Shown here: positions 1 through 62,363 of the stretch, piece after piece
Numbering within the stretch: the stretch's first letter is position 1
Layout: every line of letters starts with the position of its first letter
IMG/VR virus record: IMGVR_UViG_3300045988_026745
Length of the DNA: 62,363 bases
Reading direction: 5' to 3' (one strand)
Source: a virus
Program-made: the position numbers and the translations under genes
The notes under the pieces: generated by a model
What the model was told of the DNA's origin: nothing
The model's input: the letters and a program-made list of their open reading frames with translations, nothing else
The model's database searches: none

Positions 1-55
1 GCAATAACATCATCATCACAATATTCAGCGACTTCAACCCATTTTTCTTGTGGTA
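1..55. repeat. Terminal overlap copy 1 (circular-assembly junction)
   Basis: Bases 1-55 'gcaataacatcatcatcacaatattcagcgacttcaacccatttttcttgtggta' recur exactly as the last 55 bases (62309..62363). Confidence 0.97.
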
Positions 56-6710: not shown

Positions 6711-6748
6711 TTTAAGTTTCTCCTTTCATATTAAGAAAATTTATTATT

Positions 6749-6780
6749 CTTCCATTAAAGCGCATGTAATTTTTGCGAAT
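6749..6780 (-). promoter_or_regulatory. Conserved promoter-like module, copy 1
   Basis: Minus strand: ATTCGCAAAAATTACATGCGCTTTAATGGAAG. Consensus of at least 11 copies: aTTCGCGAAAAwTACATGnnCTTTAATGAGAG. Confidence 0.45.
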
Positions 6781-7798: not shown

Positions 7799-8572
7799 TC
7801 AATAACGTTCTAAGAAATCATAAGTAGGCTCAAATGGCATTTCAATAATATAAACATCTTTACCTTCCTCAGATTCCAATTTTCTATGATTGAAGTCAAT
7901 CCAGTACATGCCATCATCGTTAGGAGCCCAACCTAGAACAGATCCATAGTCGGTCTCTTCGATACCAAGAAACTCATAGAATTCATTCAAGTAAGAATAT
8001 CCTCTTAAAATATAATTCCTATTCAAGTGATATTCGGCTGTTAAGACTTGTTCAATAGTAGATTCAAAATATCTACCTGAGTGTTCGTCATAGAATACTT
8101 GTGGTTCGCCATTATTCTCCTCTAACGCTAGATCACAATTAGTTCCTAAATATGATCCTCGTACACCAACGTCCTCAGCCTTCTCAATAGCAATTGCTTC
8201 TCGGACCTCTTGATCTACTTCTTCGCCATAAAGTTCCTTTAGCTTTCTTCGATAATCTTTGTATGATTGATCTACAAGAGCGTATGCACTCATTAGAGCT
8301 GCTTGCTGGCGTTGGTTTAGGATATGCGCACCGAATACACAAACGAGCGTCGATATACCAAGTCCAACCGTAGGGATATAAGTCGGTCCTGCTGTTTTTA
8401 CTTTTTCCCATTTCGTTAATCGTTCTCCTTTCTTTTGTTCGGCTTCTTCAATTAAACGAAGAGCTTTTGGTGTTGCTTTTACTGCTGTGATTGTTGTAGC
8501 TACTACCCCAACGCCTCCTAAACAAGTTAAAATAGTTGAAGCATTGTGTTTGATGAATAGTCGCGAATTCAT
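7799..8572 (-). CDS. Membrane-hairpin protein, paralogue 3 of 3 (257 aa)
   Basis: See 4322..5251. C-terminal motif: 'YLNEFYEFLGIEETDYGSVLGW'. A structured leader (8603..8729) precedes it. Confidence 0.8.
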   Translation of the reverse strand: MNSRLFIKHNASTILTCLGGVGVVATTITAVKATPKALRLIEEAEQKKGERLTKWEKVKTAGPTYIPTVGLGISTLVCVFGAHILNQRQQAALMSAYALVDQSYKDYRRKLKELYGEEVDQEVREAIAIEKAEDVGVRGSYLGTNCDLALEENNGEPQVFYDEHSGRYFESTIEQVLTAEYHLNRNYILRGYSYLNEFYEFLGIEETDYGSVLGWAPNDDGMYWIDFNHRKLESEEGKDVYIIEMPFEPTYDFLERY

Positions 8573-12343: not shown

Positions 12344-12730
12344 ATGTCTATAGGAAAACGAATAAAAATGCTACGTACGAAAAGAGGTTTATCAATCGAT
12401 GATCTTGCAGCTAAGCTAGGTAAGAATAGAACAACTGTGTACAGATATGAGAATGGTGATATAGAGAATTTGCCATTGAGTATTCTTAATCCACTTGCTG
12501 ATGCTTTGGATACTACACCTGCTCATTTGATGGGTTGGGGTGATAAGGAAATGCTATCTACCAAAATATCAGATGGCAAAGAAGAAGCTGTATATTCGTC
12601 CGTAAACGAGACTTATGTGAAGCATGTAGAAGCTTGGCATAAGACATTTGGCATGGATCCTTTTACAGATGAGGAACATGAGAAATTAATGGAGTATGGT
12701 AAATTCTTAATCTCACAGAGACAAAAATAA
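12344..12730 (+). CDS. XRE-family (CI-like) repressor, 128 aa
   Basis: 'IGKRIKMLRTKRGLSIDDLAAKLGKNRTTVYRYENG' is a classic XRE HTH. An 'aaaggagacaagata' SD precedes it. It is divergent from the early operon and adjacent to the integrase. Confidence 0.85.
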   Translation: MSIGKRIKMLRTKRGLSIDDLAAKLGKNRTTVYRYENGDIENLPLSILNPLADALDTTPAHLMGWGDKEMLSTKISDGKEEAVYSSVNETYVKHVEAWHKTFGMDPFTDEEHEKLMEYGKFLISQRQK

Positions 12731-12934: not shown

Positions 12935-14581
12935 ATGTATAAAGAATGTCCAAAGTTTTACAATTATGAAGTAAAAGAGTATGGAAGAAAGTCGCGTACG
13001 GACGACCCCTTACTCTCAACCGACGAAATACTCGAGAAGCACAGTAAGATTGTAGAGGAATATGCTGTTAAATATTTAGGCGGCCCAATCCCAGATGATA
13101 ACAAATATATGGAAGTAGCAAGTGGTGAATCACTTAAAGACCGTCCTGAGATAACTCGTTTGCTCAAAGATATAGAAGACCCTGCTGTCAAAGCTATAAT
13201 AGTAGTCGAGGTACAGCGTTTAAGTCGTGGCGACCTCGAGGATGCTGGTAGGCTTATAAGGTTGCTCAGATACACGAATACTTATGTAATCACTCCTATG
13301 AAAATATATGACTTACGTGATGAATATGATAGAGATGCATTCGAACGTGAGCTTAAACGAGGTAATGAATATCTTGAGTATTTTAAGAAGATTCAAGCTC
13401 GTGGTAGATTAGCAAGTGTTAAAGACGGTAACTATATTGGCTCAACGGCTCCTTATGGATTTGACCGTATAGAGAAATTTGAAGCTGATGGCAAGAAATC
13501 ATACCACACTCTAATCGAACGTAAGGACCAAGCTGATGTAGTCCGTATGATCTTTAACTGGTATTGCGAAGAAGATATAGGCGTTACAGCAATTTGTAGA
13601 AGACTTGAAGATATAGGAGCTAAGACTAAGACTGGCCAGAGTACCTGGAAACCAAGTATAATTTTCAGTATCTTAGAAAATCATCACTATATTGGCTGCA
13701 CACGTTGGAATTGGCGGAAAACTGTGAAAATAATTGAAGACCAAGAAATAAAGAAGTTACGTCCGAAGGCAAAAGTAGACGAGTTCTTATTATTCGAAGG
13801 AAAGCATGATGGTATTATCCCAGAAGAGCAATTTAACAAGGCTCGTGAAATTAGAGGTAAACGTCATAGGACTCGTAGGGACCTGACTCTTAAAAACCCA
13901 TTCAGTGGAATTATGTTCTGTAAGCGATGCGGTCATAAGATTGGTTATAACACTTACACTAGACATGGTATTGAATATGCTCCACCTAAACTCGTATGTA
14001 ATAACCAAGTACACTGTAAATCAGGTTCTGTAAAATATAGTGAAGTGTTTGAATACGTCCGTAGAGTCTTAAAAGACTGTATAAGCGACTTTGAAGTACG
14101 CATAGAGAATAACCAAGACGACTCGTTAAAACTCCATACAGACCTAATGGCCAGGCTCACAAAGCAACTTGCTGATCTCGAGAAGAAAGAATTGGAACAA
14201 TGGGATGCTCAGTACGACCCTGATCCAGCTAAGAGACTTCCTCAACATATCTTTGCCAAACTCAATGAGAAAGTGTTAAAAGAAAAAGAGGAAGTAAATA
14301 AAGCGTTAGCCAAAGCTAAAGACTCTGCTCCAAAACATATCAATTATCGAGATGAGTTAATTAAGACTAAAGATGCTCTGAGAATATTGGAAGATGTCGA
14401 ATTAGACGCTAAAACAAAGAATCAATATCTTAAAACAGTGATTTCTAAAATGGTGTACGAACGAGATCCAATTGTACAAATCACAAAAGACAATGCTGAG
14501 AAATATAACATGCAATCGTCCAAGGGTACAAAATACTATAACCCTCCCTATAAGATAACGATTGAGCTTAAGTGTGATTAA
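12935..14581 (+). CDS. int: Large serine recombinase (integrase), 548 aa
   Basis: N-terminal resolvase-type domain ('YGRKSRTDD', 'IIVVEVQRLSRGD'), a recombinase domain and a Cys-rich zinc-ribbon region ('FCKRCGHKIG...CNNQVHC') followed by a coiled-coil tail. Confidence 0.9.
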   Translation: MYKECPKFYNYEVKEYGRKSRTDDPLLSTDEILEKHSKIVEEYAVKYLGGPIPDDNKYMEVASGESLKDRPEITRLLKDIEDPAVKAIIVVEVQRLSRGDLEDAGRLIRLLRYTNTYVITPMKIYDLRDEYDRDAFERELKRGNEYLEYFKKIQARGRLASVKDGNYIGSTAPYGFDRIEKFEADGKKSYHTLIERKDQADVVRMIFNWYCEEDIGVTAICRRLEDIGAKTKTGQSTWKPSIIFSILENHHYIGCTRWNWRKTVKIIEDQEIKKLRPKAKVDEFLLFEGKHDGIIPEEQFNKAREIRGKRHRTRRDLTLKNPFSGIMFCKRCGHKIGYNTYTRHGIEYAPPKLVCNNQVHCKSGSVKYSEVFEYVRRVLKDCISDFEVRIENNQDDSLKLHTDLMARLTKQLADLEKKELEQWDAQYDPDPAKRLPQHIFAKLNEKVLKEKEEVNKALAKAKDSAPKHINYRDELIKTKDALRILEDVELDAKTKNQYLKTVISKMVYERDPIVQITKDNAEKYNMQSSKGTKYYNPPYKITIELKCD

Positions 14582-36700: not shown

Positions 36701-38512
36701 TTAGCTAATTGGCTCTTCAAGAGCGATTGCAGAATACAGTTTAATAAGGGAACCTGACAGACGTGTCTCCAACATATATTTATATCTGTTGAAGTCCATG
36801 TCGAAGTCTTCGAATTTAGTAATCTCTCCACCCTTTGTGGAACCGAACTGATAGTCAGCAAGGTTTACAAACAGACCAAGAAGACCTTTCTTATGACCAT
36901 CAGATGTTTCTCTCTGAAGTCCTTCAAACTGCTCTACAGTATGAATTTCACCAACGTTAAGTGCTGCTGCAAGGTCAGCCTTAGAATCGTAAATTCTACG
37001 ACCATTTAAGTCACGGGCCAAAAGCATTACATTTAACAGATGTGGTGTGCAGTAAAGATCTGGTGTTCCAGAACCTTTGAATTTCTCACGAGAATATAAA
37101 GCTGCTTCAATCATAGCCTCAGCTTTGATGTAGTTCTCACTGAAGTTTGCGCCAGTGTTAGTACCCTGAAGTTTAGTCTTAGCTGCTTCAAAGTCTACAT
37201 CCTGATGGATACAATACAGATCATCATCATGCCAGATTGAACGAATGTGATCTTCATGGATCTTGTCTGGATCGCCTTCTTCACGACCGTCACCAACCAG
37301 TGCAGCCATAGCAAGAGTTTCGTCCAGGATGTGACGCATTAATTTCCACTGGTATGCTACAACATCGAAATCTCTGATATCAATAATATCATCACGATGC
37401 ATATCGTCTTTGATGTAGATAGTCTGAGGATCAGTTGTTCTTCCGATCATCTTGATATCCGCCATGTTCTGTTTGTAGTTACCTTTCTTCTGATAACCCT
37501 TAGCTTTCAGCTCAGCAATTCGAGCATCCGCCTGTCTTGTACGAATACGGCTATATGGAGATTTATGAATCTTAGAGATTGCTGCTGCGATCCAACTCTG
37601 ATCTCTTTCCAGTGTCTCAGGTTCACCTTTTTTAAGCAGCTCGTACTCTGGGAATAATTTCTCAGTATCAGCATCAGTGAATACACCGTGCGCGAGATTA
37701 CCACCATTCTCCTCAGCGTAAATCTGCATAGCCATCTTTAAGCTACCAACATTGCTCTGTTTCGCAAGTTCAACAATAGCTTCCTCATCGGAATGGCTAA
37801 GTACATTTGTCTGCTGCATTTCTTCTTTGTCAAATACATTATGCTTCATTTCTTCCTCATCTCCTTCTTTATTATCGTCGGCAGATCCACCGGCATCATC
37901 TAATGCCTGACCAACTAACGCATACATTACGGTTTTCTGTTCTTCATTCATGGAATCAATAACTTCCTGAACAGTCTTGTCACTTCCGGATTCTTCAGGT
38001 TTCTTGTTCTGATCGTCCATCTTCTTATCTCCTTTCTCTTCGCTCTTTGGTTCATCTGAATGATAGAGCATGATGTTCTCATCATAAGATGCATAAAGAG
38101 TATCCTCTTCATCAGCACTGTGAGCCATAGCGAAATCAATATATGCTCCAGGATTTGCTCCTGCGAGAACCAAACTAAGCTCTCTAATGTTTCCATGTAT
38201 TACATCTCCGCCCATCTGTTTAAGCTGATTAGCCCAGATAGATAAAGATTTAACATCGCCATTCTGTACAAGTTTCTTGGCAGTTTTACCCTGTTCGGTG
38301 TCATTAAACACACCGTAGGCATAAACACCATCATCACGATTCTCGAGTAATGCATGTCCAAGAACTGCGTCAGGATTATTATGTTCGTGGTTCCAGACTA
38401 ACGGGACTTCACATCCGTCGTTGTCTTTAAACGCATTTTTTCGAATGGTTCGACCATCAGCGCAGAGCAAGTCATTTCTGGTTGCCCATCCGCTAAAATC
38501 AAATTTAGCCAT
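36701..38512 (-). CDS. Prohead protease - acidic linker - major capsid protein fusion (603 aa)
   Basis: Track ORF to 38575. I prefer ATG 38512 (MAKFDFSGW...), which overlaps the portal stop. The N-terminus resembles the HK97-type prohead protease ('PLVWNHEHNNPDAVLGH', 'SLSIWAN'). An acidic 'EEKGDKKMDDQNKKPEESG' segment follows, then a ~330-aa capsid-like C-terminus. No separate capsid or protease gene exists elsewhere in the genome. Confidence 0.7.
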   Translation of the reverse strand: MAKFDFSGWATRNDLLCADGRTIRKNAFKDNDGCEVPLVWNHEHNNPDAVLGHALLENRDDGVYAYGVFNDTEQGKTAKKLVQNGDVKSLSIWANQLKQMGGDVIHGNIRELSLVLAGANPGAYIDFAMAHSADEEDTLYASYDENIMLYHSDEPKSEEKGDKKMDDQNKKPEESGSDKTVQEVIDSMNEEQKTVMYALVGQALDDAGGSADDNKEGDEEEMKHNVFDKEEMQQTNVLSHSDEEAIVELAKQSNVGSLKMAMQIYAEENGGNLAHGVFTDADTEKLFPEYELLKKGEPETLERDQSWIAAAISKIHKSPYSRIRTRQADARIAELKAKGYQKKGNYKQNMADIKMIGRTTDPQTIYIKDDMHRDDIIDIRDFDVVAYQWKLMRHILDETLAMAALVGDGREEGDPDKIHEDHIRSIWHDDDLYCIHQDVDFEAAKTKLQGTNTGANFSENYIKAEAMIEAALYSREKFKGSGTPDLYCTPHLLNVMLLARDLNGRRIYDSKADLAAALNVGEIHTVEQFEGLQRETSDGHKKGLLGLFVNLADYQFGSTKGGEITKFEDFDMDFNRYKYMLETRLSGSLIKLYSAIALEEPIS

Positions 38513-39752
38513 TTTGACTTTCTCCTCCTTCTTCATAATATTGAGATTCTTCGTCGGTTGGTCGCATCGTCTCATCAGGCTGACTTATGTTGCTATTGAT
38601 AAGTTCATCGGCCTTCGGATCATCTGATGGTTTCATACCGACAATCTGTCTAATTTCGTTAGAGGTCATGATCTCGTTTCTAGTAAACTTATCGGCTATT
38701 TCAGCAATGTCGTTAACAGGAACAAGTCTGAATGGATCTCTAAAGAAAGTAATTGTTTGTCTTTGTGATCGAGCTGTTTTCGTGAGGAACTTTCGTTTCA
38801 TTTCATCGACTATTGCTGATACAATAGGTTCGACAGTACGATTATTATAATTCAGCATCGTCTTTTCATCGGCGGTACCATTGAGAACCTCTTGTGTAAT
38901 TCCTAATTGGCTATACATCATTTCAGTGAGATACTCGATTTGTTTGAGAAGGTTGTTCTCTAACGAACGATTTAACTGGGTGACCTTTTCGGTTCCATCA
39001 GTATATGCAATACCATACTTAGAACCAGTCAGCTGCTCTTCGATCTCTTTTCGTCGTCGATTAGCCTGTTCTCGTCTAGCATCAGTTTTAACAACATATG
39101 GTAACTGTATAATCAAGTCTAATTTACCGGACGCCGTTTGTTCATCTGTCACATCCAATAAACTAAGCTTTCTTATCAATCTTTGCATAGTTGAGTTATG
39201 TTCATTGATAACTGCATATAACGGATTTTCTATAATAGCTACCTGACTTTTTGGCAAAAGAATATCTTCTTTATCACCAGTCTGATCGTTATATAATCGC
39301 ACTCTCACATGAGCTGGATACCAATCAAGTATCTTTCCAGTTCTCATTGATAATATGTCATAAGAATTAGTAATCTTAGGATTAAGTGTTGTATCCACCG
39401 GAACAATTGCAACGCAACCTTCATCCAACATAGACATAACAACATCCTGAATAAACGCTCGACCTGTCTGATCTAGGTTTGCTTCGAGATCAAGACAATT
39501 ATTTAACCCAGAATCTATGTCTTCAACATACCTTCTGTTTTCATCTAACCGACAATGCTTGATGTCGATACTAGCAACATCTAAAGCTATACGGTTAAAG
39601 ACTGATGTAACAATAGATCTTTCATTCCCTCGAGAAAGTCTGGGTCTATCAGGTCTTATTGAATAACTAGATCCTGTTGGCGTATATGTTGGATCTCTGT
39701 TCATAAAAGCATTGTAGGCATGTTTAAGCCTTGAGCCAATATTGATTTCCAT
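38505..39752 (-). CDS. Portal protein (415 aa)
   Basis: Position between terL and the protease-capsid gene, plus size. An 'aaaggagaaaatcaaa' SD precedes it. Confidence 0.65.
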   Translation of the reverse strand: MEINIGSRLKHAYNAFMNRDPTYTPTGSSYSIRPDRPRLSRGNERSIVTSVFNRIALDVASIDIKHCRLDENRRYVEDIDSGLNNCLDLEANLDQTGRAFIQDVVMSMLDEGCVAIVPVDTTLNPKITNSYDILSMRTGKILDWYPAHVRVRLYNDQTGDKEDILLPKSQVAIIENPLYAVINEHNSTMQRLIRKLSLLDVTDEQTASGKLDLIIQLPYVVKTDARREQANRRRKEIEEQLTGSKYGIAYTDGTEKVTQLNRSLENNLLKQIEYLTEMMYSQLGITQEVLNGTADEKTMLNYNNRTVEPIVSAIVDEMKRKFLTKTARSQRQTITFFRDPFRLVPVNDIAEIADKFTRNEIMTSNEIRQIVGMKPSDDPKADELINSNISQPDETMRPTDEESQYYEEGGESQNG

Positions 39753-42428: not shown

Positions 42429-43484
42429 TTAACTTAAATATCTCTCTGTTTTTCTTCGAACATAAGAATTACACTCAGACAAACTCTTAGTGCCGAATTT
42501 TGATACATAGCCTAATGTGTTAGCCGAAACTTCTTTAGCCATTCGTTCAGCATTGTATCGTCTATACAACCTGTCCACCACTTTTGGATTGGTTTCTGTT
42601 ACCGACTGTAATCTAACTGAATCAGTATCAAACACAATCATAGGTCGTTTAGCATGATAACTTGAATATTCCTTATCGTTGTAATCAAGTAATGCATTAT
42701 ACCCCTTCTTCTTCAACTCTGAATAGAATCGATTCTGTGCTGCGATTTCCTGAGAATTATGGTTTGTTAGAGAAAGGTTTAATGCTTTATATATCGCTAC
42801 TTTCTCTGACTTAGATAATGTACTCGGATCTTTGTTCAAAGCATTTTGAGCTTGCTTGAATAAAACCTGTTGTGTTGGACGTCGCATTTTTTCTTTTGAA
42901 TCTTCTATTGATGCAACTACATTCTTTTTGAAATCTGGCTCTCTAAGAAGATTGGCTGTAATGTGTCCTGCATTCTCGTCAGACGGAATCTTAAGTTTCT
43001 TCGTCGCATCAATCTTAAGCTGGTAGACTTTCATGTTATCCGATTTACTACGAAGCTGTTTCGCAATAGCTAGATCAGCATCGCTACCTGAAGCATTTGC
43101 CTGTTTTTCAGCTCGCTTGGCCTCTGCGTTTGCTCTACTTGTAAGATTCTTACCAAATAAACCCATATACTCATCAATGTCATGCTTCTTATATGTAGCA
43201 TAAAACGCAAAGTTTTCAAAGTCCTTAGATGTCTGAATTCTTGAGAAAGTCGTACCTTTCTTCAAATATGTATCAACGTACTGTCTTCCTGTGATCTGAG
43301 TTTTTGCAGTGTTTGTTAATTCACTGACTTTCATACTCATCAAGGAAGCTATACGTTCGGTATTATTCTGATTATTCTGATATCTCTTTTTGCCGGCCGG
43401 GGTATATGATCCATCAGCAAACTGATAGCGTCGAACGCTCCACTTCTGACCTTTTATTCCATGATGATATAGTTCCATAGGCAT
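42429..43484 (-). CDS. 'ELYHHG-x-x-G-x-KW' family protein (351 aa)
   Basis: The N-terminus 'MPMELYHHGIKGQKWSVRRYQFADGSYTPAGKKRY' is paralogous to 43485..44024 and 40100..40640. Confidence 0.75.
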   Translation of the reverse strand: MPMELYHHGIKGQKWSVRRYQFADGSYTPAGKKRYQNNQNNTERIASLMSMKVSELTNTAKTQITGRQYVDTYLKKGTTFSRIQTSKDFENFAFYATYKKHDIDEYMGLFGKNLTSRANAEAKRAEKQANASGSDADLAIAKQLRSKSDNMKVYQLKIDATKKLKIPSDENAGHITANLLREPDFKKNVVASIEDSKEKMRRPTQQVLFKQAQNALNKDPSTLSKSEKVAIYKALNLSLTNHNSQEIAAQNRFYSELKKKGYNALLDYNDKEYSSYHAKRPMIVFDTDSVRLQSVTETNPKVVDRLYRRYNAERMAKEVSANTLGYVSKFGTKSLSECNSYVRRKTERYLS

Positions 43485-44024
43485 CTACCCCTTTAACTCT
43501 TTTATAGCTAAAGCGATACCCAATGCTGAACTTGTTAATGTGAGAGCAGTTCCTGCGTTATCAAGAATCCTACTAACATGTTCACGCCCTTTAGATTCGT
43601 TCTTTGGATTGAACATATCGTTATACTGTCGCTCAAGATAGGCACGATTAATCTGATCTCTCATTTCTTTATCAGTCATATGGCTCAGATCCATTTTCGG
43701 GGCTGGGTTATTTTTAATGCTTCTTTCATTAGCAGTCTTAAGCTGATTAACCATTGTGTTACTAGCATCTGTAAGACGCTTCGAACGCTCCATGTCTTCT
43801 TTAACATATCTATGAGCATCGACTTTTAGTGTGTCTCTACCTTTTTTGGTTTTCTTATACCGAACACCACTTGATTCGTCACGCTGATCGTAACCTTTTT
43901 CTCGAGCATCTCTGGCATATCGTTTCTGACCATGAGATGTTAACGATCCATCTTTGTTCTGGTATCTCCGGACGCCCCATTTCATACCGAGAACACCATG
44001 ATGATAAAGTTCATTTTGATTCAT
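43485..44024 (-). CDS. 'ELYHHG-x-x-GMKWG' family protein (179 aa)
   Basis: N-terminus 'MNQNELYHHGVLGMKWGVRRYQNKDGSLTSHGQKRY'. C-terminal hydrophobic helix 'ALTLTSSALGIALAI'. Confidence 0.75.
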   Translation of the reverse strand: MNQNELYHHGVLGMKWGVRRYQNKDGSLTSHGQKRYARDAREKGYDQRDESSGVRYKKTKKGRDTLKVDAHRYVKEDMERSKRLTDASNTMVNQLKTANERSIKNNPAPKMDLSHMTDKEMRDQINRAYLERQYNDMFNPKNESKGREHVSRILDNAGTALTLTSSALGIALAIKELKG

Positions 44025-44396: not shown

Positions 44397-44816
44397 TTAG
44401 TCATGACGCCATGGACAAGTGTCATTTTTTGTCCTTATCGTTGGTTCACTAAGCAATATACTCTCATCGCTGTAATGAATAGCGTCATGCGTAAGCTTCA
44501 TTGTTGTTATGAGATACTCTGGGTTCAAAAGGAAATCGCTTCTATTCATTAGATCCTCTTTTGTTATAGGATTCATATGATGAATTAAAACTCGTCCATG
44601 TATCTCACGACCTTCAATTCCAAGATCACAACCATTGTCTCGGAATATAACATGGTCTCTTATTGCAAGCCATTCTTTAGATTTATAGAATGCTTGATTT
44701 AACCAACGATCAAATCCAAAAGTATCCACGCCAACTTGTCCACCAAGTCGAAGATACTTATACCTTTCTTCAAAGGTTGGTAATTTTATCAACTCAGAAT
44801 ATGTCTTAATACTCAT
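44397..44816 (-). CDS. HNH endonuclease (139 aa)
   Basis: Track ORF to 44867. I prefer ATG 44816 (MSIKTYSEL...). 'RDNGCDLGIEGREIHGRVLIHHMNPI' is HNH-like. Adjacent to the terminase genes. Confidence 0.65.
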   Translation of the reverse strand: MSIKTYSELIKLPTFEERYKYLRLGGQVGVDTFGFDRWLNQAFYKSKEWLAIRDHVIFRDNGCDLGIEGREIHGRVLIHHMNPITKEDLMNRSDFLLNPEYLITTMKLTHDAIHYSDESILLSEPTIRTKNDTCPWRHD

Positions 44817-45135
44817 CCGGTTCACCTTGTCCTGCATAATCCCGCATCGCTCGGATTGCATCTTCATACAGACCTTTCATTTCTTCACCAGATTCGATAG
44901 CCTCGGTTTTAGCTCTAAGAAGTTCATTCTCTTTTTCGAGTTTCTCTCTTTCAAGTCGTTCTCGCTCAGTACCAAGCTTTAAGAAATGTGTTATCACCTG
45001 AGAAGAAGCGGTTCCATCTAAAAGCTGCTGCTCAGCACAGTCCATAGCAAGTGAAATCATCTGATTCTCTCTAGCTTCGGGTGTTATAGCTGGTCTCATC
45101 TTACGAGCACTACCAGTTTTCTTAACTTTAGCCAT
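44806..45135 (-). CDS. terS: Terminase small subunit (109 aa)
   Basis: 'ITPEARENQMISLAMDCAEQQLLDGTASSQVITHFLKLGTERERLE' is typical of small terminases in Bacillota phages. An 'agaggaggttgtaagt' SD precedes it. Confidence 0.7.
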   Translation of the reverse strand: MAKVKKTGSARKMRPAITPEARENQMISLAMDCAEQQLLDGTASSQVITHFLKLGTERERLEREKLEKENELLRAKTEAIESGEEMKGLYEDAIRAMRDYAGQGEPDEY

Positions 45136-45170
45136 ACTTACAACCTCCTCTCATTTAGTTATAGAATAGT

Positions 45171-45318
45171 TTATGTGGTCTTTAGAAGAGTTTACAGGAT
45201 GAATGACCTACCTTTTGGAGGCGAAAGGAGATAAACCATATGACAAAAAGTAACCAGAAACTTACCAAACCAACAACTTAACCTGTAAAACCTGTAAACC
45301 CCTCTAAACACCACATAA
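45171..45318. repeat. 28-bp imperfect inverted repeat (24/28) flanking a 92-bp spacer, upstream of terS (cos/pac or leader structure candidate)
   Basis: 45171..45198 'ttatgtggtctttagaagagtttacagg' versus 45291..45318 'cctgtaaacccctctaaacaccacataa'. A tandem 'cctgtaaa' pair sits at 45282..45298. Confidence 0.6.
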
Positions 45319-45437
45319 CACACCGGAGGAAAATATAAATTGTTTCTGGAAAATTCCCTCCGGAGAAAAAATGAGGACCGCGGCGATGCAGGGAGGGGGT
45401 GCAATTTTGGCGACCCCCCCTATGTCTTTTTGAATAC

Positions 45438-45713
45438 TTACGCCGGTACGTTGTCCTCTTTCTTTGTTTCTTTGTGATTTCTGTAAACTTTTTTATAAAT
45501 ATTTAAGAAATCGTTATCAATAATTGAATTTATTGCTCTTTCATGCTCTTCATCAGACTCTTTTTCACTCATGTCTTCATAAACATTCTCGATTCGTCCG
45601 AGTAATGCACATGTATTGTATCCTTTTGCAATGTCGAACAGAAACCATTGAGTGAACTGTTCAAATGGATCAAAAGGATTATCGAATGTTGTTAATCTAC
45701 AATCATTTGTCAT
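45438..45713 (-). CDS. Hypothetical protein (91 aa)
   Basis: ORF track. 'TTFDNPFDPFEQFTQWFLFDIAKGYNTCALLGR'. Confidence 0.7.
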   Translation of the reverse strand: MTNDCRLTTFDNPFDPFEQFTQWFLFDIAKGYNTCALLGRIENVYEDMSEKESDEEHERAINSIIDNDFLNIYKKVYRNHKETKKEDNVPA

Positions 45714-45731: not shown

Positions 45732-48629
45732 TTACGACTTAAGATACTTTGAAACAGTTGATGTAGAAACACCAAGCTTGTCAGCTATCTCAGCAATTGT
45801 ATAAGAAGCTGACATTGCTTTGATTCTATTAATCTTTGCTTGATTGATAGCTACTGATTGTTTAGGCATTGCTCTTTGTCTAAGTGAGTCTGGGTCGCAC
45901 TGGTTAAGTATGCGCTTAAGCTTAGACTCACTGATAGCACCTGCCTGAATAGCTTCCCATTCTTTATCGCTAATGACTATATTTCTATCTTTTCTTGAAA
46001 TAGATCCAACTTCTTCACGAGCTTTACTTAATGCTCTTTGACTATCTTTCCTTACATCTTTAGCTTTATATGTAACGCCTTCTTCTTCGGCCTTCTTCTT
46101 CTTAGCATTGATAGTGGCAGCCGCCATTCTGTTAGCTGTTCTTTCTCTAACTGTATTAAGTTCAGCTTTACGAAGTTTATCGTCAAGACTCTTTACTTCT
46201 GTATCATACTTTCTTTTAGCATCAGCGTTATATGCAACCTTACCTGCTTTAGTCATCTCAACCCTAGCTTTATTAGCTAATGATTTCATGCTGTTAGCAT
46301 AGTCAGCATAAACTAATTCCATTAGATGTCTGTATTCAGAAACTAATGTCATAGCATCATCTGTTTCAGCCATCTTTGTACTCTTCTGCTTACGAGTACG
46401 TACCTCAGTGACAGTCTCGCCTGTACGCTTATTGGTCTTGGTTATGGTATAGTCCGCATCGTCTGCCCTCCTATATAGAAGCGCTCCCTCAGGACGGGAT
46501 GGATCATAGTCTGGTCTACCCTTAATGTTTATGTGCGGCGTTCCCTGTCTCTTATCCACATCATACTCGCCCTTAGCACGAGAGATAAGTGTTGATGCTC
46601 CACCATATCTCATGCGACCATTCTTATCTTCATGAGCCTGGTATTCTTTTCTAAGAGCTGCTATGTTATTGTCTATCTCACTCTGCTTGTAGTCTAGCTT
46701 GTGCTTCTCAGCATCGATAACGACCATGGAGTGACGAACAGCTCTTGCCATCTTCTCAGGCGGCGCTCCTGCCAATGTCATGTCTGTAATAAGATTGGAG
46801 ATCTTACCCATCTCAGTATCAGTCTTCTTCATTACTTTGAATTCAGCGCCGTTACGATAGTAATGTTCTTTGCCATCTGAATCAACCTTCATGTCATGAT
46901 ACTGATAGGATTTAGAATCAAATCCAACTAATCCCTCAAGTGGATCTGTGGAAGTAATCTTAACCTTTCCACCTTTATCATGGGTTGGAATACACATAAC
47001 CGTATCGCCATCAAAGTCTGCCCCAGACAATCGCTCAGCAACCTTACTGTTAATACCTATAGCATCGATAGAAGTCTTACCAATCATCTTGATAGCTTCT
47101 GGGTTTTTATTATTAACAGTACAGATTGGTATTTCAAATGTACCACCATGAGGATATCGAATAAGAGCAAGCTTAGTTCCATCCGCATAGTTCGGAGCAT
47201 ATACTTCTTTTTCACTCATAGAAGTGACTGGCAGTATAACGTGATACTTCTGTCTAGGTAAAGCAGCAGCTTTTAGATCAACAGCGGCAGAATCGCAACT
47301 CTGAGCAAACTTATTTAAGTAATACTTCTTGATAGTTGGATTAGTAAGAGCCATGATTTCATCAAACTCAGACTGCTTGTCTGCTTTAGCAATGCCAAGC
47401 TGTTTCTTAGCCATAGATAAAGACTGTTTTGATAAGAACTGAGAAGGTAATGCATCTTTCCATTCATTCCATTCGCCTTCTTCTCTTGTCTTATTGATTA
47501 GACCAAGCTTCTTATTACCATTCTTATCCTCATACCAATACTGTCCACCCTTTTCTTTAACCAAAGCACCAAATGGATTGTCAGGATCATCTTTAATCTT
47601 CTTCAAGACATCCATTTTAGCAACATCTTTGGATTTGTTAGTGTTGAATATAACGTCAACACCTGGCGGAAAGTCTTTAGGGTCACCATAAACAGCCATA
47701 CCTTTCAAATATCGCTTACCGTCAACCATAATTCTGACCTGAGAATATCGTGATTCGCCAAGAGACAAGTCAGCAACACCAGGACGAAGTTCCATAACAC
47801 CATCCTTGTCGATACCGCCGTCTTCTTTATAACGGATTTTCAGTCGACTTGAGTCCATGCTTTCTGGATAATGGAATTTCTTTTCGAATGTTTTACCATC
47901 GTCCCTTGAAATATAATCATTGAGTGTCTGAATTCTATCAAGATCATATATTTCATTATGTTTTGTGCCTGGTTTACATAATACTCGCTGAGTTGTCATC
48001 TGCCCTTTGTTGGTCACCTGCGCAAAGCGACCACCATAAACTTCATATCCTCCTTCTGCTTGGAGAATAAAGAGGGCCTGATCTAATTTTTCTTTAGATA
48101 TATTAAGTTCTCTCTCAACACCAGCACCAACGTCAACCATACCTTTTTCATCAACATGTTTCTTGAGGAAATCTGCTGTTTCTCGAGCCTGCTTCATACG
48201 GAATTCTCTGTTAGGATCAAGTAAACTACGAACGGTTGATTCATTGATTCCCATTTTACGGCCAATCTCACTATTATTTAAACCATCGCTCTTCAAAGAT
48301 TGAGCTCTAGCAACATCATACGCTCGTCGTTCATCTTTAGCTATTCCATATACAGTTCTGAAGTCTGTAGAAGAATATCCGAGAGATTTAGCGATAGCAT
48401 TGTCGCCAGTATAGGTTTTACCAGTCTCTGGATCAGTATATGTAAAACCATTTTTTCGCATTTGCTCAACTCGACCATAGAAGTCTCTACCTGATTGATA
48501 TGGATCTTCACCTGATCCCCAAGGATATCTTCCCGATCTACGAGGCATTCCATAGTGTTCAAGATATTCTTCATCGGTCATTGAAGCAGAGTCAATATAT
48601 GATTTAATCTCTTCTGCTACAGCATTCAC
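45732..48629 (-). CDS. Candidate single-subunit two-barrel RNA polymerase (YonO/RdRP-like) with terminal HTH segments, 965 aa
   Basis: 'LIRYPHGGTFEIPICTV' (~47143-47170) is followed by 'LSGADFDGDTVMCIP' (DFDGD = 47004..47018). HTH-like segments: 'NNSEIGRKMGINESTVRSLL' (N-terminal) and 'YTIAEIADKLGVSTSTVSKYL' (C-terminal). Confidence 0.5.
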   Translation of the reverse strand: MNAVAEEIKSYIDSASMTDEEYLEHYGMPRRSGRYPWGSGEDPYQSGRDFYGRVEQMRKNGFTYTDPETGKTYTGDNAIAKSLGYSSTDFRTVYGIAKDERRAYDVARAQSLKSDGLNNSEIGRKMGINESTVRSLLDPNREFRMKQARETADFLKKHVDEKGMVDVGAGVERELNISKEKLDQALFILQAEGGYEVYGGRFAQVTNKGQMTTQRVLCKPGTKHNEIYDLDRIQTLNDYISRDDGKTFEKKFHYPESMDSSRLKIRYKEDGGIDKDGVMELRPGVADLSLGESRYSQVRIMVDGKRYLKGMAVYGDPKDFPPGVDVIFNTNKSKDVAKMDVLKKIKDDPDNPFGALVKEKGGQYWYEDKNGNKKLGLINKTREEGEWNEWKDALPSQFLSKQSLSMAKKQLGIAKADKQSEFDEIMALTNPTIKKYYLNKFAQSCDSAAVDLKAAALPRQKYHVILPVTSMSEKEVYAPNYADGTKLALIRYPHGGTFEIPICTVNNKNPEAIKMIGKTSIDAIGINSKVAERLSGADFDGDTVMCIPTHDKGGKVKITSTDPLEGLVGFDSKSYQYHDMKVDSDGKEHYYRNGAEFKVMKKTDTEMGKISNLITDMTLAGAPPEKMARAVRHSMVVIDAEKHKLDYKQSEIDNNIAALRKEYQAHEDKNGRMRYGGASTLISRAKGEYDVDKRQGTPHINIKGRPDYDPSRPEGALLYRRADDADYTITKTNKRTGETVTEVRTRKQKSTKMAETDDAMTLVSEYRHLMELVYADYANSMKSLANKARVEMTKAGKVAYNADAKRKYDTEVKSLDDKLRKAELNTVRERTANRMAAATINAKKKKAEEEGVTYKAKDVRKDSQRALSKAREEVGSISRKDRNIVISDKEWEAIQAGAISESKLKRILNQCDPDSLRQRAMPKQSVAINQAKINRIKAMSASYTIAEIADKLGVSTSTVSKYLKS

Positions 48630-48632
48630 ATG

Positions 48633-49190
48633 TTACACCTCCTCTGCATCAACCTCTTCTAACATTTTGTTAAGATGTACGATCTTATCCATGATTGGTA
48701 AAATATCTTCTGCTGTTGGTTTATGTACAATAACTTCGTCATTCTGGTAAAGTCTAAGTTCCATATCAATATCACCAGGACGAATCTTATATTCTAAACA
48801 GAATAAAGCAGCATATACTTCAAGCTGTTCCATATGCACTGGATTCTTACCGGTTTTAAGATCATGGATTCTTAACATATTCTTTCTGAAAGATATAGCG
48901 TCAGCAGTGCCGAAAAATCTGTCAGAATAATATAAAACAACCTCAGTGCTCATTTTGAAACCTATTGCATCGTTTACATATGCGTAAATGGTTTTCTTAG
49001 AACGAGGTTGTTTAATTCTTAAGTCTATAGTTTCTTTAGCCCAGGCATGAAGTCTTGTTCCTATTTCTGCGGCTTTCTTGTTCTGGTATACTTCAAGTGC
49101 TTTATTGTCGTCATAGCGAAGCCAAGCACTAGAGCTCGCACTAAACGGAGCATGAAGTCCCTCAAGTTTTACATGTTTTGTAAAATTCAT
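48633..49190 (-). CDS. PD-(D/E)XK nuclease (DUF2800/Cas4-like fold), 185 aa
   Basis: 'FFGTADAISF...LRIHDLKTGK...EQLEVYA' shows the D...(D/E)xK pattern. Confidence 0.55.
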   Translation of the reverse strand: MNFTKHVKLEGLHAPFSASSSAWLRYDDNKALEVYQNKKAAEIGTRLHAWAKETIDLRIKQPRSKKTIYAYVNDAIGFKMSTEVVLYYSDRFFGTADAISFRKNMLRIHDLKTGKNPVHMEQLEVYAALFCLEYKIRPGDIDMELRLYQNDEVIVHKPTAEDILPIMDKIVHLNKMLEEVDAEEV

Positions 49191-49202: not shown

Positions 49203-49490
49203 TTAATTGAAGTGTCGGTCAAGTTCTTCTAACACTTCATCTTTGTTCTCTGGAAATATAAATCTGGAGAACGACATGTCATTCATTTTGTTAACATAGT
49301 ATTCCTGGTTAGGTCTGTGAGAAGCTGTCTTGCTCCTTTTATTTTCTAAGGTGGCCCAACGATCCTTGTAAAGAACAAGTAAATCAGGGATACCTTGAAT
49401 ATCACCAGAGTCAAGTTTTGTTATAATGCAGCCTGGATATCTCTGTTTTAATTCTTTTTTCAGGTCTGCCTGGAATTTACTTTCACGCAT
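49203..49490 (-). CDS. VRR-NUC domain nuclease (95 aa)
   Basis: 'ESKFQADLKKELKQ...GIPDLLVLYKDRWATLENKRSK' matches the VRR-NUC E...PD...(E)xK pattern. Confidence 0.65.
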   Translation of the reverse strand: MRESKFQADLKKELKQRYPGCIITKLDSGDIQGIPDLLVLYKDRWATLENKRSKTASHRPNQEYYVNKMNDMSFSRFIFPENKDEVLEELDRHFN

Positions 49491-49681: not shown

Positions 49682-50041
49682 TTACAGTTGCTTAAAATGA
49701 TACCCTTTATGTGACTTACGACTTCGCTTATTGTTTAAGATATCGCATATAACACTCGGACTACCGTGTATCGCATCAGCACATTCTCGAAGTGTGTTAA
49801 AGACTTCTCCTGTCTCGACAATCATTATTTTTCGACGTTCTTTAATTATTGGCTCTTCGCCTTTTCTAACGATGTGATAACCTTTACATGTATCAAACCC
49901 GGGACAATGATTTACTACTCGGCTGACATATGCTGGATTACCTTCTATAGCATCAGCACATGCTTTGATCGAATTAAATACTTCGCCAGTCTCTACAATC
50001 ATTACTGATACGCCATTTCGCTTTGTATTGAATTGATTCAT
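49682..50041 (-). CDS. Tandem NUMOD1/IENR1-like DNA-binding modules without a nuclease domain (119 aa)
   Basis: Track ORF to 50062. I prefer ATG 50041 after 'gaaaggaggagatct'. Two repeats: 'MIVETGEVFNSIKACADAIEGNP..V.....KGYH' and 'MIVETGEVFNTLRECADAIHGSP..I.....KGYH'. Confidence 0.5.
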   Translation of the reverse strand: MNQFNTKRNGVSVMIVETGEVFNSIKACADAIEGNPAYVSRVVNHCPGFDTCKGYHIVRKGEEPIIKERRKIMIVETGEVFNTLRECADAIHGSPSVICDILNNKRSRKSHKGYHFKQL

Positions 50042-50057
50042 AGATCTCCTCCTTTCA

Positions 50058-50095
50058 AACAAAAAGAAAGAGGGCTAGTTTGACTAGCGCCTCCA
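50058..50095 (-). terminator. Intrinsic terminator after 50105..50521
   Basis: Minus strand: GAGGCGCTAGT-CAA-ACTAGCCCTC hairpin followed by TTTCTTTTTGTTT. Confidence 0.6.
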
Positions 50096-54216: not shown

Positions 54217-54501
54217 CTAAACCAAATAAACCAGCATTACGATATAATGTAATAACTGGTCAGTCACATAATTAATTTTGTTGTATCTAGCTTTTAACGG
54301 ATCAATTGCCATATGCGTAATAAATATAAATGGTAGCTGCCAAGTCAATCCAAATACAATGAAGAATGGTAAACAATATAACGCACAATGTACAAACAAA
54401 TGATACCAATTCTCTCCTTTCGTTTTTGCTATGAAATCCGACTGAAGTACATAGTCGCCTATTAAATGACAAAATATCAATGTTATTATTAATTTAATCA
54501 T
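54217..54501 (-). CDS. DUF3307-like membrane protein (94 aa)
   Basis: 'FCHLIGDYVLQSDFIAKTK' plus several TM helices. Confidence 0.6.
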   Translation of the reverse strand: MIKLIITLIFCHLIGDYVLQSDFIAKTKGENWYHLFVHCALYCLPFFIVFGLTWQLPFIFITHMAIDPLKARYNKINYVTDQLLHYIVMLVYLV

Positions 54502-55234
54502 CCTTCTCTACCTCCTCACTCAGTTTGATTCCTAAAATATCAAATCTGTTTCTAATTTCTTTAGCGAGCTGTTCGCCATATGACTGTGCAGCTTTCATTA
54601 TGTCGTTGTATGATAATATAGCCGACTCAGAAGTACTCGCGTTATCGTCTACTTTTAACTCAGGAATCCACTTCTTGAATTCTTCATAATAGTTACCTTT
54701 GTTTCCCATAGCTTTCTTACAAATAGCCATAGCAAGACCTTTCTCTTCATCAAATATGTCATAATCACCACATTTAGCAACCGTCTTAGTGTTATCGCTC
54801 CAGAATACAATAGTCGCTGGGTCATTGAATATAACTTTGGTGATAGCACATTCAGGCTTACTAATATCAACGTCAACTGCTGGAAATACATCTGAATGTA
54901 GACCAACTTTCATTCTTACTTTAGCATGCGGAATACCATATCGTTCTCTAAGAAGAGTGACAATATCTTTCATCATCATTTTATAAGTTTCTTTGTTAAT
55001 ACATGGCACATCACCATCAAAATCTCCTACTCCCCAAGGATATCGTCCGGAGTTTCTTGGTAAAGCGCCTAAATTGTGTGGATCTACCATGTCGGTACCT
55101 ACATAACAAGCCCCAGTGCCGAATATTGCGTTCAACTGTCTTTTAACATATTCATTCCATTCCTGAGCAATCTGCTCGTCGTTTTCTTTCATTGCTTCCA
55201 TAAACTGTTTTGCTTTTTCTAAATCATAACTCAT
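54494..55234 (-). CDS. Hypothetical protein with 'SGRYPWGVGDFDGD' motif (246 aa)
   Basis: ORF track. Motif at 55010..55051. It shares 'R.SGRYPWG.G' with the N-terminus of 45732..48629. Confidence 0.75.
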   Translation of the reverse strand: MSYDLEKAKQFMEAMKENDEQIAQEWNEYVKRQLNAIFGTGACYVGTDMVDPHNLGALPRNSGRYPWGVGDFDGDVPCINKETYKMMMKDIVTLLRERYGIPHAKVRMKVGLHSDVFPAVDVDISKPECAITKVIFNDPATIVFWSDNTKTVAKCGDYDIFDEEKGLAMAICKKAMGNKGNYYEEFKKWIPELKVDDNASTSESAILSYNDIMKAAQSYGEQLAKEIRNRFDILGIKLSEEVEKDD

Positions 55235-60695: not shown

Positions 60696-60727
60696 CTCTC
60701 ATTAAAGGAGATGTAAATATCACGAAT
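60696..60727 (-). promoter_or_regulatory. Conserved promoter-like module, copy 11 (overlaps the replicase stop codon)
   Basis: Minus strand: ATTCGTGATATTTACATCTCCTTTAATGAGAG. Confidence 0.45.
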
Positions 60728-62363
60728 TATAAGAACGGTAACTCATCTTCGTCCGTATCCGGGATTGTCATAAAATCTGGTGTAGGCTCTGGCGGGATAT
60801 AAGGATCGTCTGAAACGAACCATTCGAAGTCTCCATATTTACTAATTACTTCGACAGCGTCGTCAGCAAGCTTATCATAGAATCTATAGTCAATATAATC
60901 TTTCTTGCCTATGTTTTTAACAACCTCGGACTCAAGCCAGCGATATCCAGTAGAGCCTGATGCTGCGTAGTTTTTACCTTCGTTAATACGGTAAAGCACA
61001 CCGCCACCATGGCCTGACTGAATAGGAGTGAACTGGCCTACTCTTCCTACAAAAATATAATTGTGTCCTGGCTCAATCAACTCTTTAAGTCTCATTGATT
61101 CAGGTTCGAATGTTGTGTCTGAAAGCTGACCTTTCTTATATTTACTCTCAAGTTTATCAAGTTCTTTCTCATACTCAGTCACATCTGGAAGATCTTCATT
61201 CATATCCAAATATAAAGATCCTTTAGCTACTGAGAAAGTTTCGCATAAGTCTTCAAACACAATGTCTTCATGACTGAATAAATTCTTGAATACATAAGGT
61301 ACAGCAAACTGTTTGCCTGTAGCCGTCCAAGAATCTTCAATATGCTTCTTATTATCTCCAGGAGCATATCCATACATAGCTTCGCATTCGTCAGGATCTT
61401 TATACTTAGCAATATAAACTGCGTCATTTACTAAGCACATACGATCGTATGTAGCTTCATGTTCGAATGTGTAGCCATATCTCTTACCGAATTCCATAAC
61501 AAATTCGATAATCTCCGGAGTAGCATCTGGAATCTTAATCGAGTCTGTCTTAATATGAGCAACAGTGAAGCCGCGTTCCTGTACTGCGTGTTTAAGATCC
61601 ACCATGAATAAAGCTCCACGTTTAGCAACAATATTGTCTTTGTTTCTCATATCACGGAATGGATTCTCAAAGCCAGCCGCTGTTAAACCGTATACTGAGT
61701 TAATAGCTGTCTTAAGCGCATTAGCAAGATCTCCAGATTTCATCTCACCGTTCTTAACCCTCTGAATATGTTTCGTAAGCTTACCATCGAGCATATGGTT
61801 AACTTCTTCCCAAGCTTCGTGTTTAATGTTTACACGACCCTCGACAATGTCTCGATAAGCTTTAGTGTATCTTATACCAAATAAACATTCAGCTATTGTG
61901 CTGTGTGGATGCATGGAAGCAACATCAAGTAAGGCTACATTACCGTACATACCTGGCTCAGCGTAAACATAGCCGCCCTCTCCGACTTCCTCATCACGAT
62001 ATGTAGATTTACCATACTCGTATTTATACCCAGGAAAATATGGTAAGAGCGACCCAGCTTCACCGTGAGTCTTTTCCATCATCTCAGGACAGGCTTCTGC
62101 TAAGAACTGATAAGTGTCTTCATCCAAATCCATTACAGGCTCTGCTAAATTACGATAATGGAATTCTTTTTGAGGTTTTTTATTACCACCAAATATGATT
62201 TTCTGAGTCAATGTGTTAGTCGTACTGTTAACTGACATCTCAGCTAAGTCTGCCAGAATCTCTCGTGCGGTCCAGTCAGCAGACAAATAATTAAACGCTG
62301 CTTCGGTTGCAATAACATCATCATCACAATATTCAGCGACTTCAACCCATTTTTCTTGTGGTA
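60727..62363 (-). CDS. Replicase polyprotein, C-terminal part: family-B DNA polymerase domain (joins 1..2600 across the junction)
   Basis: The track's start (62286, TTG) is internal; the frame stays open to the window end. Motifs: 'LLDVASMHPHS' (motif A, DxxSLYPS-like), 'LKTAINSVYG' (motif B, Kx3NSxYG), 'HIKTDSIKI' (motif C, DTDS-like), 'IAKYK' (KxY). Confidence 0.85.
   Translation of the reverse strand, partial: PQEKWVEVAEYCDDDVIATEAAFNYLSADWTAREILADLAEMSVNSTTNTLTQKIIFGGNKKPQKEFHYRNLAEPVMDLDEDTYQFLAEACPEMMEKTHGEAGSLLPYFPGYKYEYGKSTYRDEEVGEGGYVYAEPGMYGNVALLDVASMHPHSTIAECLFGIRYTKAYRDIVEGRVNIKHEAWEEVNHMLDGKLTKHIQRVKNGEMKSGDLANALKTAINSVYGLTAAGFENPFRDMRNKDNIVAKRGALFMVDLKHAVQERGFTVAHIKTDSIKIPDATPEIIEFVMEFGKRYGYTFEHEATYDRMCLVNDAVYIAKYKDPDECEAMYGYAPGDNKKHIEDSWTATGKQFAVPYVFKNLFSHEDIVFEDLCETFSVAKGSLYLDMNEDLPDVTEYEKELDKLESKYKKGQLSDTTFEPESMRLKELIEPGHNYIFVGRVGQFTPIQSGHGGGVLYRINEGKNYAASGSTGYRWLESEVVKNIGKKDYIDYRFYDKLADDAVEVISKYGDFEWFVSDDPYIPPEPTPDFMTIPDTDEDELPFL
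62309..62363. repeat. Terminal overlap copy 2 (circular-assembly junction)
   Basis: Exact copy of bases 1-55. Confidence 0.97.

Follow-up and report, generated by a model that had tools for sequence, protein, structure and literature searches.

Two-barrel RNA polymerases perform all cellular transcription, and their minimal single-chain forms show what the core enzyme is capable of by itself. The sole bacterial single-chain example to have been studied is YonO, a DNA-dependent RNA polymerase that transcribes the late operon of SPbeta. A much larger group, the "phage 1706" family, was placed among five YonO-like families by Ruprich-Robert and Thuriaux (2010; PMC2919709), who called its biological role an enigma. 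It was later described computationally in actinophages, in the 1706 group and in FP_oengus by Koert et al. (2021; bioRxiv 10.1101/842583), who reported for the family alignment an HHpred match of 95.7% to PF05183, a DxDGD motif and helix-turn-helix (HTH) domains at both ends, and who suggested RNA polymerase activity. The assignment of the family to the polymerases is not new: it dates from these publications of 2010 and 2021, and the corresponding PHROG family, phrog_4291, is already labeled RNA-dependent RNA polymerase (RdRP). Here we describe a member of this family that is encoded by a virus (IMG/VR record IMGVR_UViG_3300045988_026745), and we compare it with these systems. The whole stretch of 62,363 nt that we analyzed is referred to as the window.

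The gene is a minus-strand open reading frame (ORF) of 965 codons that begins with GTG and is preceded, at a distance of 8-9 nt, by the ribosome-binding site GAGGAGG. A preliminary description of the window, made by eye from the letters and their translations, had proposed that the product is a single-subunit, two-barrel RNA polymerase. The ORF and every motif quoted in that description were found exactly where it had put them, and they are listed here with the domains that we assign to the protein (aa, amino acid positions).

45732..48629, minus strand: two-barrel RNA-polymerase-like gene (phrog_4291, "phage 1706" family), by phrog match, AlphaFold 2 (AF2) model and Foldseek
48510..48563, minus strand (aa 23-40): conserved motif L-x-H-Y-G-x(4)-SGRYPWGSG, in the predicted disordered N-terminus (aa 1-43)
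48510..48536, minus strand (aa 32-40): SGRYPWGSG
48216..48287, minus strand (aa 115-138): N-terminal helix-turn-helix (HTH_28, GerE, phrog_3855)
48219..48278, minus strand (aa 118-137): N-terminal HTH-like segment NNSEIGRKMGINESTVRSLL
47595..47864, minus strand (aa 256-345): predicted first (beta-subunit-like) barrel, by model confidence, invariant residues and Foldseek
46980..47249, minus strand (aa 461-550): predicted second (beta-prime-like) catalytic barrel, which holds RYPHGG and DFDGD
47142..47159, minus strand (aa 491-496): RYPHGG, within KLALIRYPHGGTFEIPICTV (aa 486-505)
47004..47018, minus strand (aa 538-542): DFDGD, within LSGADFDGDTVMCIP (aa 534-548)
46782..46811, minus strand (aa 607-616): conserved helix motif MGKISNLITD, downstream of the catalytic loop
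45738..45806, minus strand (aa 942-964): C-terminal helix-turn-helix, sigma-70 region 4-like (Pfam, phrog_836)
45741..45803, minus strand (aa 943-963): C-terminal HTH-like segment YTIAEIADKLGVSTSTVSKYL

Fold prediction and motif conservation both support placing the protein, as a nucleotide polymerase made of a single chain, in the two-barrel (double-psi beta-barrel) superfamily; its catalytic core (aa ~256-665) keeps an R-x-P-H strand, a metal-binding DFDGD loop and a conserved first barrel. Conservation was judged principally from an alignment of 74 homologues that are ~46% identical to the query. Invariant on the catalytic side of this alignment were R491, P493, H494, G495, G496 and D538-F-D-G-D542; in the first barrel, D276, Q297, R299, K309-G310, D325 and K332; and in the helix motif, M607, G608, N612, L613, I614 and D616. 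Seven positions of the N-terminal motif (H25, G27, S32, G33, R34, G38 and G40) and three of the N-terminal HTH (E130, S131 and R134) were likewise invariant, the latter including recognition-helix residues. Because they do not vary among 74 homologues at this level of identity, the RYPHGG and DFDGD motifs are, as judged from sequence, more than chance. A wider survey of 150 representatives of 50%-identity clusters gave a similar picture, with D-x-DGD present in 149 of the 150 (141 of which read DFDGD) and the N-terminal motif in 89. That DFDGD and R-x-P-H are kept among homologues, as the preliminary description had anticipated, is thus well borne out.

A model of the full-length protein had a predicted local distance difference test score (pLDDT) of 77.8, with aa 1-43 falling below 50. 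In Foldseek searches it matched six structures of the plant enzyme RDR2 (E 1e-5 to 8e-4), at low template-modeling (TM) scores of 0.24-0.28, and we therefore modeled the core (aa 196-765) alone with AlphaFold (pLDDT 82.7, predicted TM score 0.71). The best matches of the core model were eleven chains of QDE-1 (E 5e-9 to 4e-8, TM 0.35-0.44 over ~535 columns), the foremost of which had an E value of 5.4e-9 and a TM score of 0.44 over 536 of 570 columns. These were followed by seven RDR2 entries (E 1e-6 to 1e-4), by the canonical double-psi barrel of VAT-N (probability 0.99, root-mean-square deviation 2.8 over 100 columns) and, most weakly, by Rpb1 and beta' chains (E 0.2-2). The predicted fold is therefore that of a two-barrel polymerase. 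The preliminary description had proposed a search of aa ~250-340 for another barrel; the first barrel is predicted at aa 256-345, the most confident part of both models (pLDDT 90-96). Because homologues keep the motifs and the predicted fold matches two-barrel polymerases, we found the opposite of what would speak against the polymerase call, namely loss of DFDGD from homologues or the lack of such a fold.

Ruprich-Robert and Thuriaux (PMC2919709) catalogued eight invariants of the superfamily. They include an Arg and a Pro in the strand that precedes the catalytic loop (R962 and P964 of QDE-1, R446 and P448 of Rpb1) and, in the first barrel, an Asp and two basic residues (D709, R738 and K743 of QDE-1; D837, K979 and K987 of Rpb2). 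The Arg/Pro strand is present here as the invariant R491-Y-P493-H494, and the invariant D276, D325, R299, K309 and K332 fall inside the predicted barrel at aa 256-345, where they are candidate counterparts of the Asp and basic residues of QDE-1 and Rpb2.

Over nearly its whole length (aa 15-964) the protein matched positions 4-906 of the 909 in the phrog_4291 profile (E 0, 1209.8 bits). The family comprises 865 clusters at 50% identity (E <= 1e-30) and more than 8000 matching sequences in a 90%-identity protein collection, and the nearest named relative is a prophage protein of Anaerobutyricum hallii (76% identity). A tblastn search identified full-length homologues in 249 phage records (37-57% identity, with at least 97% of the query covered); 57% was the highest identity to a GenBank phage record, and the hosts of these phages include Arthrobacter, Gordonia, Streptomyces, Lactococcus (the 1706 group) and Faecalibacterium (FP_oengus), among others. 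The product of orf75 of phage 1706 is 38.6% identical over 98% of the query. The homologues carry a variety of labels ("HTH DNA-binding domain protein", "RNA-dependent RNA polymerase", "putative RNA polymerase" and, for 1706 orf75, "structural protein"), with HTH or CsgD-family regulator being the name in most SEA-PHAGES records and NCBI/JGI entries. Direct sequence searches were less telling than the family profile. Neither the whole protein nor the core matched the Pfam RdRP family PF05183 (gathering threshold 23.8 bits), for which one family member, P0152, reached 17.1 bits (E 0.0024) around the catalytic loop, below that threshold. Scans of the whole protein and core against Pfam and NCBIfam detected HTH domains alone, as did searches of Protein Data Bank sequences with the protein and with the 74-sequence profile, and a PADLOC scan of the protein. 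We also noticed that in three members (P0152, P0161 and P0221) aa 28-151 form an additional 2H phosphoesterase domain at the N-terminus (PF13563, 2'-5' RNA ligase superfamily) and that P0152 shows a weak Acb1-like match in addition.

The HTH domains that had been suspected at both ends of the protein are there, the C-terminal one above the Pfam cut-offs and the N-terminal one slightly below them. The C-terminal domain (aa 942-964) scored 35.5 bits against HTH_23, 30.9 against Sigma70_r4_2 (PF08281) and 29.8 against Sigma70_r4 (PF04545), all above the curated cut-offs, and phrog_836 ("late transcriptional activator") matched aa 898-964 with an E value of 9e-6. The N-terminal domain (aa 115-138) scored 24.7 bits against HTH_28 and 23.2 bits against GerE, and phrog_3855 ("HTH DNA binding protein") matched aa 86-137. 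The resemblance to sigma factors is confined to the region 4-like HTH: sigma-70 region 2 was not found in the protein, and the score against TIGR02937 was 24.3 bits, as compared to a cut-off of 42.9. In keeping with the preliminary description, no sigma factor or other RNA polymerase subunit was found in the 40 other ORFs of the window that we scanned.

How does the protein compare with the enzymes that it resembles? YonO (839 aa) likewise consists of one chain of comparable length, and an alignment of profiles shows the motifs R-x-P-H, D-x-DGD and G-x-x-SN-x-IT in the same order in both proteins. Aligning the 74-sequence profile with hhalign to a profile of 51 sequences built from SPbeta yonO paired R491-Y-P493-H494 with R492-S-P494-H495 of YonO, D-x-DGD with the same motif of YonO, and MGKISNLITD with IGEISNNITK; the alignment in the first barrel is weak and extends over 8 residues (LKGM versus IKGL). 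The YonO profile itself had no match among solved structures. The yonO gene, moreover, lies directly upstream of the SPbeta late operon in the same orientation. On the other hand, YonO has neither HTH domains nor the N-terminal motif of this protein, and its family ends in an invariant Cys4 (C799, C802, C816 and C819) that has no counterpart here. The hhalign E value was a marginal 0.049, and HTH domains occupy the ends where YonO has its C-terminal Cys4. Hence, in its narrow sense, the label "YonO-like" given to the protein in the preliminary description does not hold, and by sequence the protein belongs to a family separate from YonO in the same superfamily.

That family is represented by phage 1706 orf75 (phrog_4291), to which the homology is full length and with which the protein shares the order N-terminal motif, HTH, two barrels, HTH; its members include FP_oengus gp55 and "HTH DNA-binding" proteins of Arthrobacter, Gordonia and Streptomyces phages. 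What sets the present copy apart from these records is that its phage is temperate and has a gut Firmicute as host. QDE-1 of Neurospora and RDR2 of plants provide the best structural matches to the predicted core and share with it the DbDGD loop and the R/K-x-P-x-x-H strand. The sequence identity, however, is 10-15%, these eukaryotic enzymes lack HTH domains, and they act in RNA silencing, for which there is no context here. Finally, gp66 of the crAss-like phage phi14:2 and the tape-measure-fused RNA polymerase of P23-45 are likewise phage-encoded, single-chain, two-barrel enzymes, and the "structural protein" label of 1706 orf75 suggests a possible link to the virion in common with them; they differ in having no HTH fusion and were outside the 50 best Foldseek matches.

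The setting of the gene bears on its role. Because the last 55 nt of the window (62309..62363) repeat the first 55 nt (1..55), the assembly is circular and represents a complete phage genome of 62,308 bp. Genes for a serine recombinase (12935..14581) and a repressor (12344..12730) lie on the plus strand, and all other genes are transcribed one way; the presence of these two genes agrees with the earlier description of the phage as temperate, and its host type is a gut Firmicute. The neighbors of the polymerase-like gene are as follows.

49203..49490, minus strand: VRR-NUC-like endonuclease gene, the second conserved upstream neighbor (phrog_93; its positional counterpart in GantcherGoblin, gp88, bears the annotation "VRR-Nuc")
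48633..49190, minus strand: Cas4/RecB-like exonuclease gene (phrog_3953, E 4e-75), whose stop codon is 3 nt from the start of the polymerase-like gene
45438..45713, minus strand: conserved downstream gene of 91 codons (phrog_4303, E 1.4e-31; no Pfam family)
45375..45423, minus strand: conserved ~50-nt element ATAGGGGGGGTCGCCAAAATTGCACCCCCTCCCTGCATCGCCGCGGTCC at the probable cos site, by alignment to the genome ends of relatives
44806..45135, minus strand: first gene past cos, in the small-terminase position, which opens the packaging/structural block (phrog_4259, E 5e-46)

Of the large genes of the replication arm the polymerase-like gene comes last, and its translation is coupled to that of the gene for the Cas4-like nuclease. 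The order VRR-NUC, Cas4-like nuclease, polymerase-like gene, small gene, genome end is conserved in FP_oengus, 1706 and GantcherGoblin, and in phage 1706 and GantcherGoblin, which have cohesive ends, the genome terminates directly past the small gene. That small gene, which in phages of both phyla always sits right behind the polymerase-like gene, has counterparts in FP_oengus gp56, phage 1706 orf76, GantcherGoblin gp91 and three metagenomic contigs, and its 91-aa product is a candidate partner or accessory factor of the polymerase-like protein. Past the genome end, the phrog_4259 gene has homologues in GantcherGoblin gene 1 and phage 1706 orf4 and is followed here by HNH, connector and TerL genes. 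The late block thus starts ~300 nt downstream of the polymerase-like gene, beyond cos. The gene had been placed at the head of the late operon, a statement that we revise: it closes the replication arm, and a cos-type genome end separates it from the packaging genes.

We assign the region 45375..45423 as probably the cos site because its conserved element coincides with the genome ends of relatives and with contig ends. The element, whose pattern is GGGGGGGTC-N3-AAAA-N4-CACCCCCTCC-N-TGCATCGC-N2-CGG, can be aligned to the termini of two metagenomic contigs, to FP_oengus and to the right-hand genome ends of GantcherGoblin and phage 1706; in the compared loci it lies at 8004..8051 of L003, 9420..9468 of L002 and ~11075..11125 of L001. 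It is common to phages of Lachnospiraceae-like hosts, Faecalibacterium, Arthrobacter and Lactococcus, and such cross-phylum conservation of the sequence of a cos site would be unusual. A hairpin predicted in the element was no more stable than in shuffled sequence (z = -0.19). The 300-nt intergenic region in which the element lies (45136..45437) is nearly identical to positions 6685..6977 of another locus, L007, whose polymerase-like protein is 76% identical to the one described here; conservation is thus higher in this non-coding stretch than in the genes that flank it. Candidates for its content are cos, terminase sites, a promoter and a leader RNA; an Rfam scan of it returned nothing above threshold.

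The explanation that we favor, with confidence a little better than even, is that the protein is a DNA-templated phage transcriptase of the late genes that is guided by its own HTH domains. Host RNA polymerase would make the protein together with the products of the middle and replication genes, which is probable because the gene ends the replication arm and is coupled to the Cas4-like nuclease gene. The protein would then transcribe phage DNA without the host enzyme, as YonO does in SPbeta, its likeliest targets being the packaging, structural and lysis genes that start ~300 nt downstream, and transcription would cross the cos site after circularization or concatemer formation. Promoter recognition would be provided by the HTH domains in place of the sigma factors used by the host enzyme. 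We infer this role from the DNA dependence of YonO and of QDE-1, for which DNA-dependent activity is described (PMC9508822), from the position of yonO, from the HTH domains, from the run of DNA between the polymerase-like gene and the late genes, in which no terminator-like site was found, and from the scan of 40 other ORFs, in which no sigma factor or other RNA polymerase subunit turned up. Several observations count against such a role. The nearest solved structures are enzymes named RNA-dependent, and the type of template cannot be read from sequence. The profile alignment to YonO had a probability of 1% and covered 75-115 columns around the catalytic loop. A search for promoter motifs gave no candidate: the tandem GGTTTTACAGGTT near cos is not repeated elsewhere in the genome, and terminator and sigma-70 scans remained at background level. 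The linear genomes of lytic relatives have the gene at their extreme right end, apart from the late genes until the ends join. The orthologue in phage 1706 is annotated "structural protein", which points to a role in the virion instead or in addition. Finally, a search of the literature returned no biochemical or genetic study of any member of the family.

The last annotation brings us to the possibility, which we regard as unlikely, that the polymerase is packaged in the virion. The virion RNA polymerases of N4, crAss-like and phiKZ-like phages and of P23-45 enter the cell with the DNA. By analogy, the protein might be loaded into the capsid by way of its disordered N-terminal motif, acting in targeting or in binding a partner, and enter with the DNA to transcribe the incoming genome, or to help internalize or circularize it, before phage proteins are synthesized. 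The label in the GenBank record of phage 1706 (orf75, EU081845) fits this scenario and is also its one piece of direct evidence; the paper on the Arthrobacter phages contains no mass spectrometry. The N-terminal motif is invariant and predicted to be disordered, and its sequence in the polymerase (LQHYGTKRHSGRYPWGSG) resembles the DUF7211-type motif LQHRGVIGMRWG of another 1706 "structural protein", the product of orf7, at whose position the window has two DUF7211 proteins. When 1005 ORFs were searched with a hidden Markov model (HMM) built from 202 family N-termini, DUF7211 proteins took four of the eleven sub-threshold ranks; their E values of 1-7, however, are not significant, and the N-terminus of the polymerase had no Pfam match to DUF7211. 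The gene adjoins the genome end, and across phyla the recognition helices of its HTH domains are conserved to the same degree as the element next to cos. It is accordingly conceivable, if doubtful, that the motif is a distant DUF7211 variant or capsid-targeting signal, that the HTH domains bind the cos-adjacent element, and that the enzyme enters the cell with the genome end. Against packaging, the genes run in one direction, the early genes of this temperate member are neighbors of the repressor and distant from both genome ends, no obvious pre-early set exists for an injected enzyme, and the two-barrel virion polymerase of crAss-like phage was not among the 50 best structural matches. An RNA-templated or dual-template enzyme of the QDE-1 kind, which would make antisense or double-stranded RNA from transcripts, or extend RNA 3' ends, for regulation or for countering host defense rather than for bulk transcription, is in our judgment improbable. 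It is true that QDE-1 and RDR2, the closest solved folds, make double-stranded RNA, that RdRP is the name of the family in PHROGs and RefSeq, that 2H phosphoesterases, found as a domain in some members, have RNA or cyclic nucleotides as substrates, and that RNA-mediated regulation was raised as a possibility by Ruprich-Robert and Thuriaux (PMC2919709). Nevertheless, the RdRP names were transferred by homology, YonO as the sole characterized bacterial relative is DNA-dependent, no partner genes reminiscent of RNA silencing were seen among the genes of the window, and two conserved DNA-binding modules better fit a site-specific enzyme that uses a DNA template.

Two further alternatives dispense with late transcription altogether. 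The enzyme could serve replication or packaging at the genome end, by making primers or by transcribing or pausing at the cos junction so as to ready concatemers for the HNH-terminase; pausing of T7 RNA polymerase at the concatemer junction has been proposed to play a parallel role. The location of the gene, directly beside cos and inside a block for replication and recombination (helicase, VRR-NUC, Cas4-like nuclease), is as this proposal would have it, and the synteny is kept from phages of Actinobacteria to those of Firmicutes (this analysis; Koert et al.). Yet position is the sole tie to packaging, and the proposal, which we consider decidedly improbable, is weakened because the phage has a helicase-primase-polymerase protein of its own: a priming enzyme is already present in the 1393-aa replication protein, whose orthologue Koert et al. 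(10.1101/842583) call a primase/polymerase. It is also conceivable that the protein is simply a DNA-binding regulator in which the barrel region is a scaffold without catalysis, as most of its database names (HTH, CsgD-family) and the detection of only HTH domains by Pfam and NCBIfam would have it. This is highly improbable, given that the three aspartates, the R-x-P-H strand and the first-barrel residues are invariant across phyla in the pattern of a working active site and that DFDGD is present in 141 of 150 clusters, which is not expected of an inactive scaffold.

The family, which is frequent in human-gut prophages and occurs in phages that infect two phyla, may represent a self-contained, promoter-specific minimal polymerase because it carries its own DNA-binding domains. 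It would lend itself well to the study of sigma-independent promoter recognition and might furnish a compact, orthogonal tool for expression. Its likely role is easily missed because most records say only "HTH DNA-binding protein". Should the polymerase instead be carried in the virion, many ordinary siphoviruses, including common human-gut prophages, would join the phages that inject an RNA polymerase.

The N-terminal motif occurs a second time in the window, as the preliminary description had noted, and the recurrence is supported by BLASTP (E 2e-5) and by the motif HMM (E 4.4e-6 among 1005 ORFs).

54494..55234, minus strand: ORF of 246 codons that shares PRxSGRYPWGxG, with LPRNSGRYPWGVG at aa 57-69 followed directly by DFDGDVPCI

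In this unrelated small protein, for which no PHROG, Pfam or PADLOC family was matched, both signature strings of the polymerase are thus adjacent. The two DUF7211 genes of the window (43485..44024 and 42429..43484, both on the minus strand) are adjacent to each other and lie between the connector gene and TerL, and their products begin with the DUF7211 motif (ELYHHGVLGMKWGVRRYQ and ELYHHGIKGQKWSVRRYQ, respectively); phage 1706 orf7 occupies the same position, and GantcherGoblin gp6 also has the DUF7211 motif. A regular expression that picked exactly four ORFs was not counted as evidence with respect to DUF7211, and the corresponding shuffle control is circular because the pattern was written after those four ORFs had been seen. 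Another right-arm "structural protein" of phage 1706, the product of orf71, is without the N-terminal motif.

Finally, we note several other features of the genome. The 1393-aa replication protein is encoded on the minus strand across the junction of the window (60727..62363 plus 1..~2600) once the overlap is removed. Its aa 179-291 make up a DUF5906 (D5/SF3-helicase-type) domain, and it has a C-terminal DNA polymerase (phrog_4210), ahead of which an archaeo-eukaryotic primase signature (VVIDFDLKD ... GGAGIHLHY) was recognized by eye. Three phrog_2152 paralogues are present in the early region (4322..5251, 6780..7547 and 7799..8572, all on the minus strand). The product of a single 624-codon gene (36701..38575, minus strand) matches families of the head maturation protease as well as of the major head protein, and in this it looks like the fusion of protease and capsid protein described in phages of the Arthrobacter clusters AM/AU. 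Lastly, a 126-aa protein (49682..50062, minus strand) consists of an internal duplication of a ~45-aa unit, the copies of which begin VMIVETGEVFNSIKACADAIEGNP and IMIVETGEVFNTLRECADAIHGSP, and it weakly matches the part of homing endonucleases that binds DNA.

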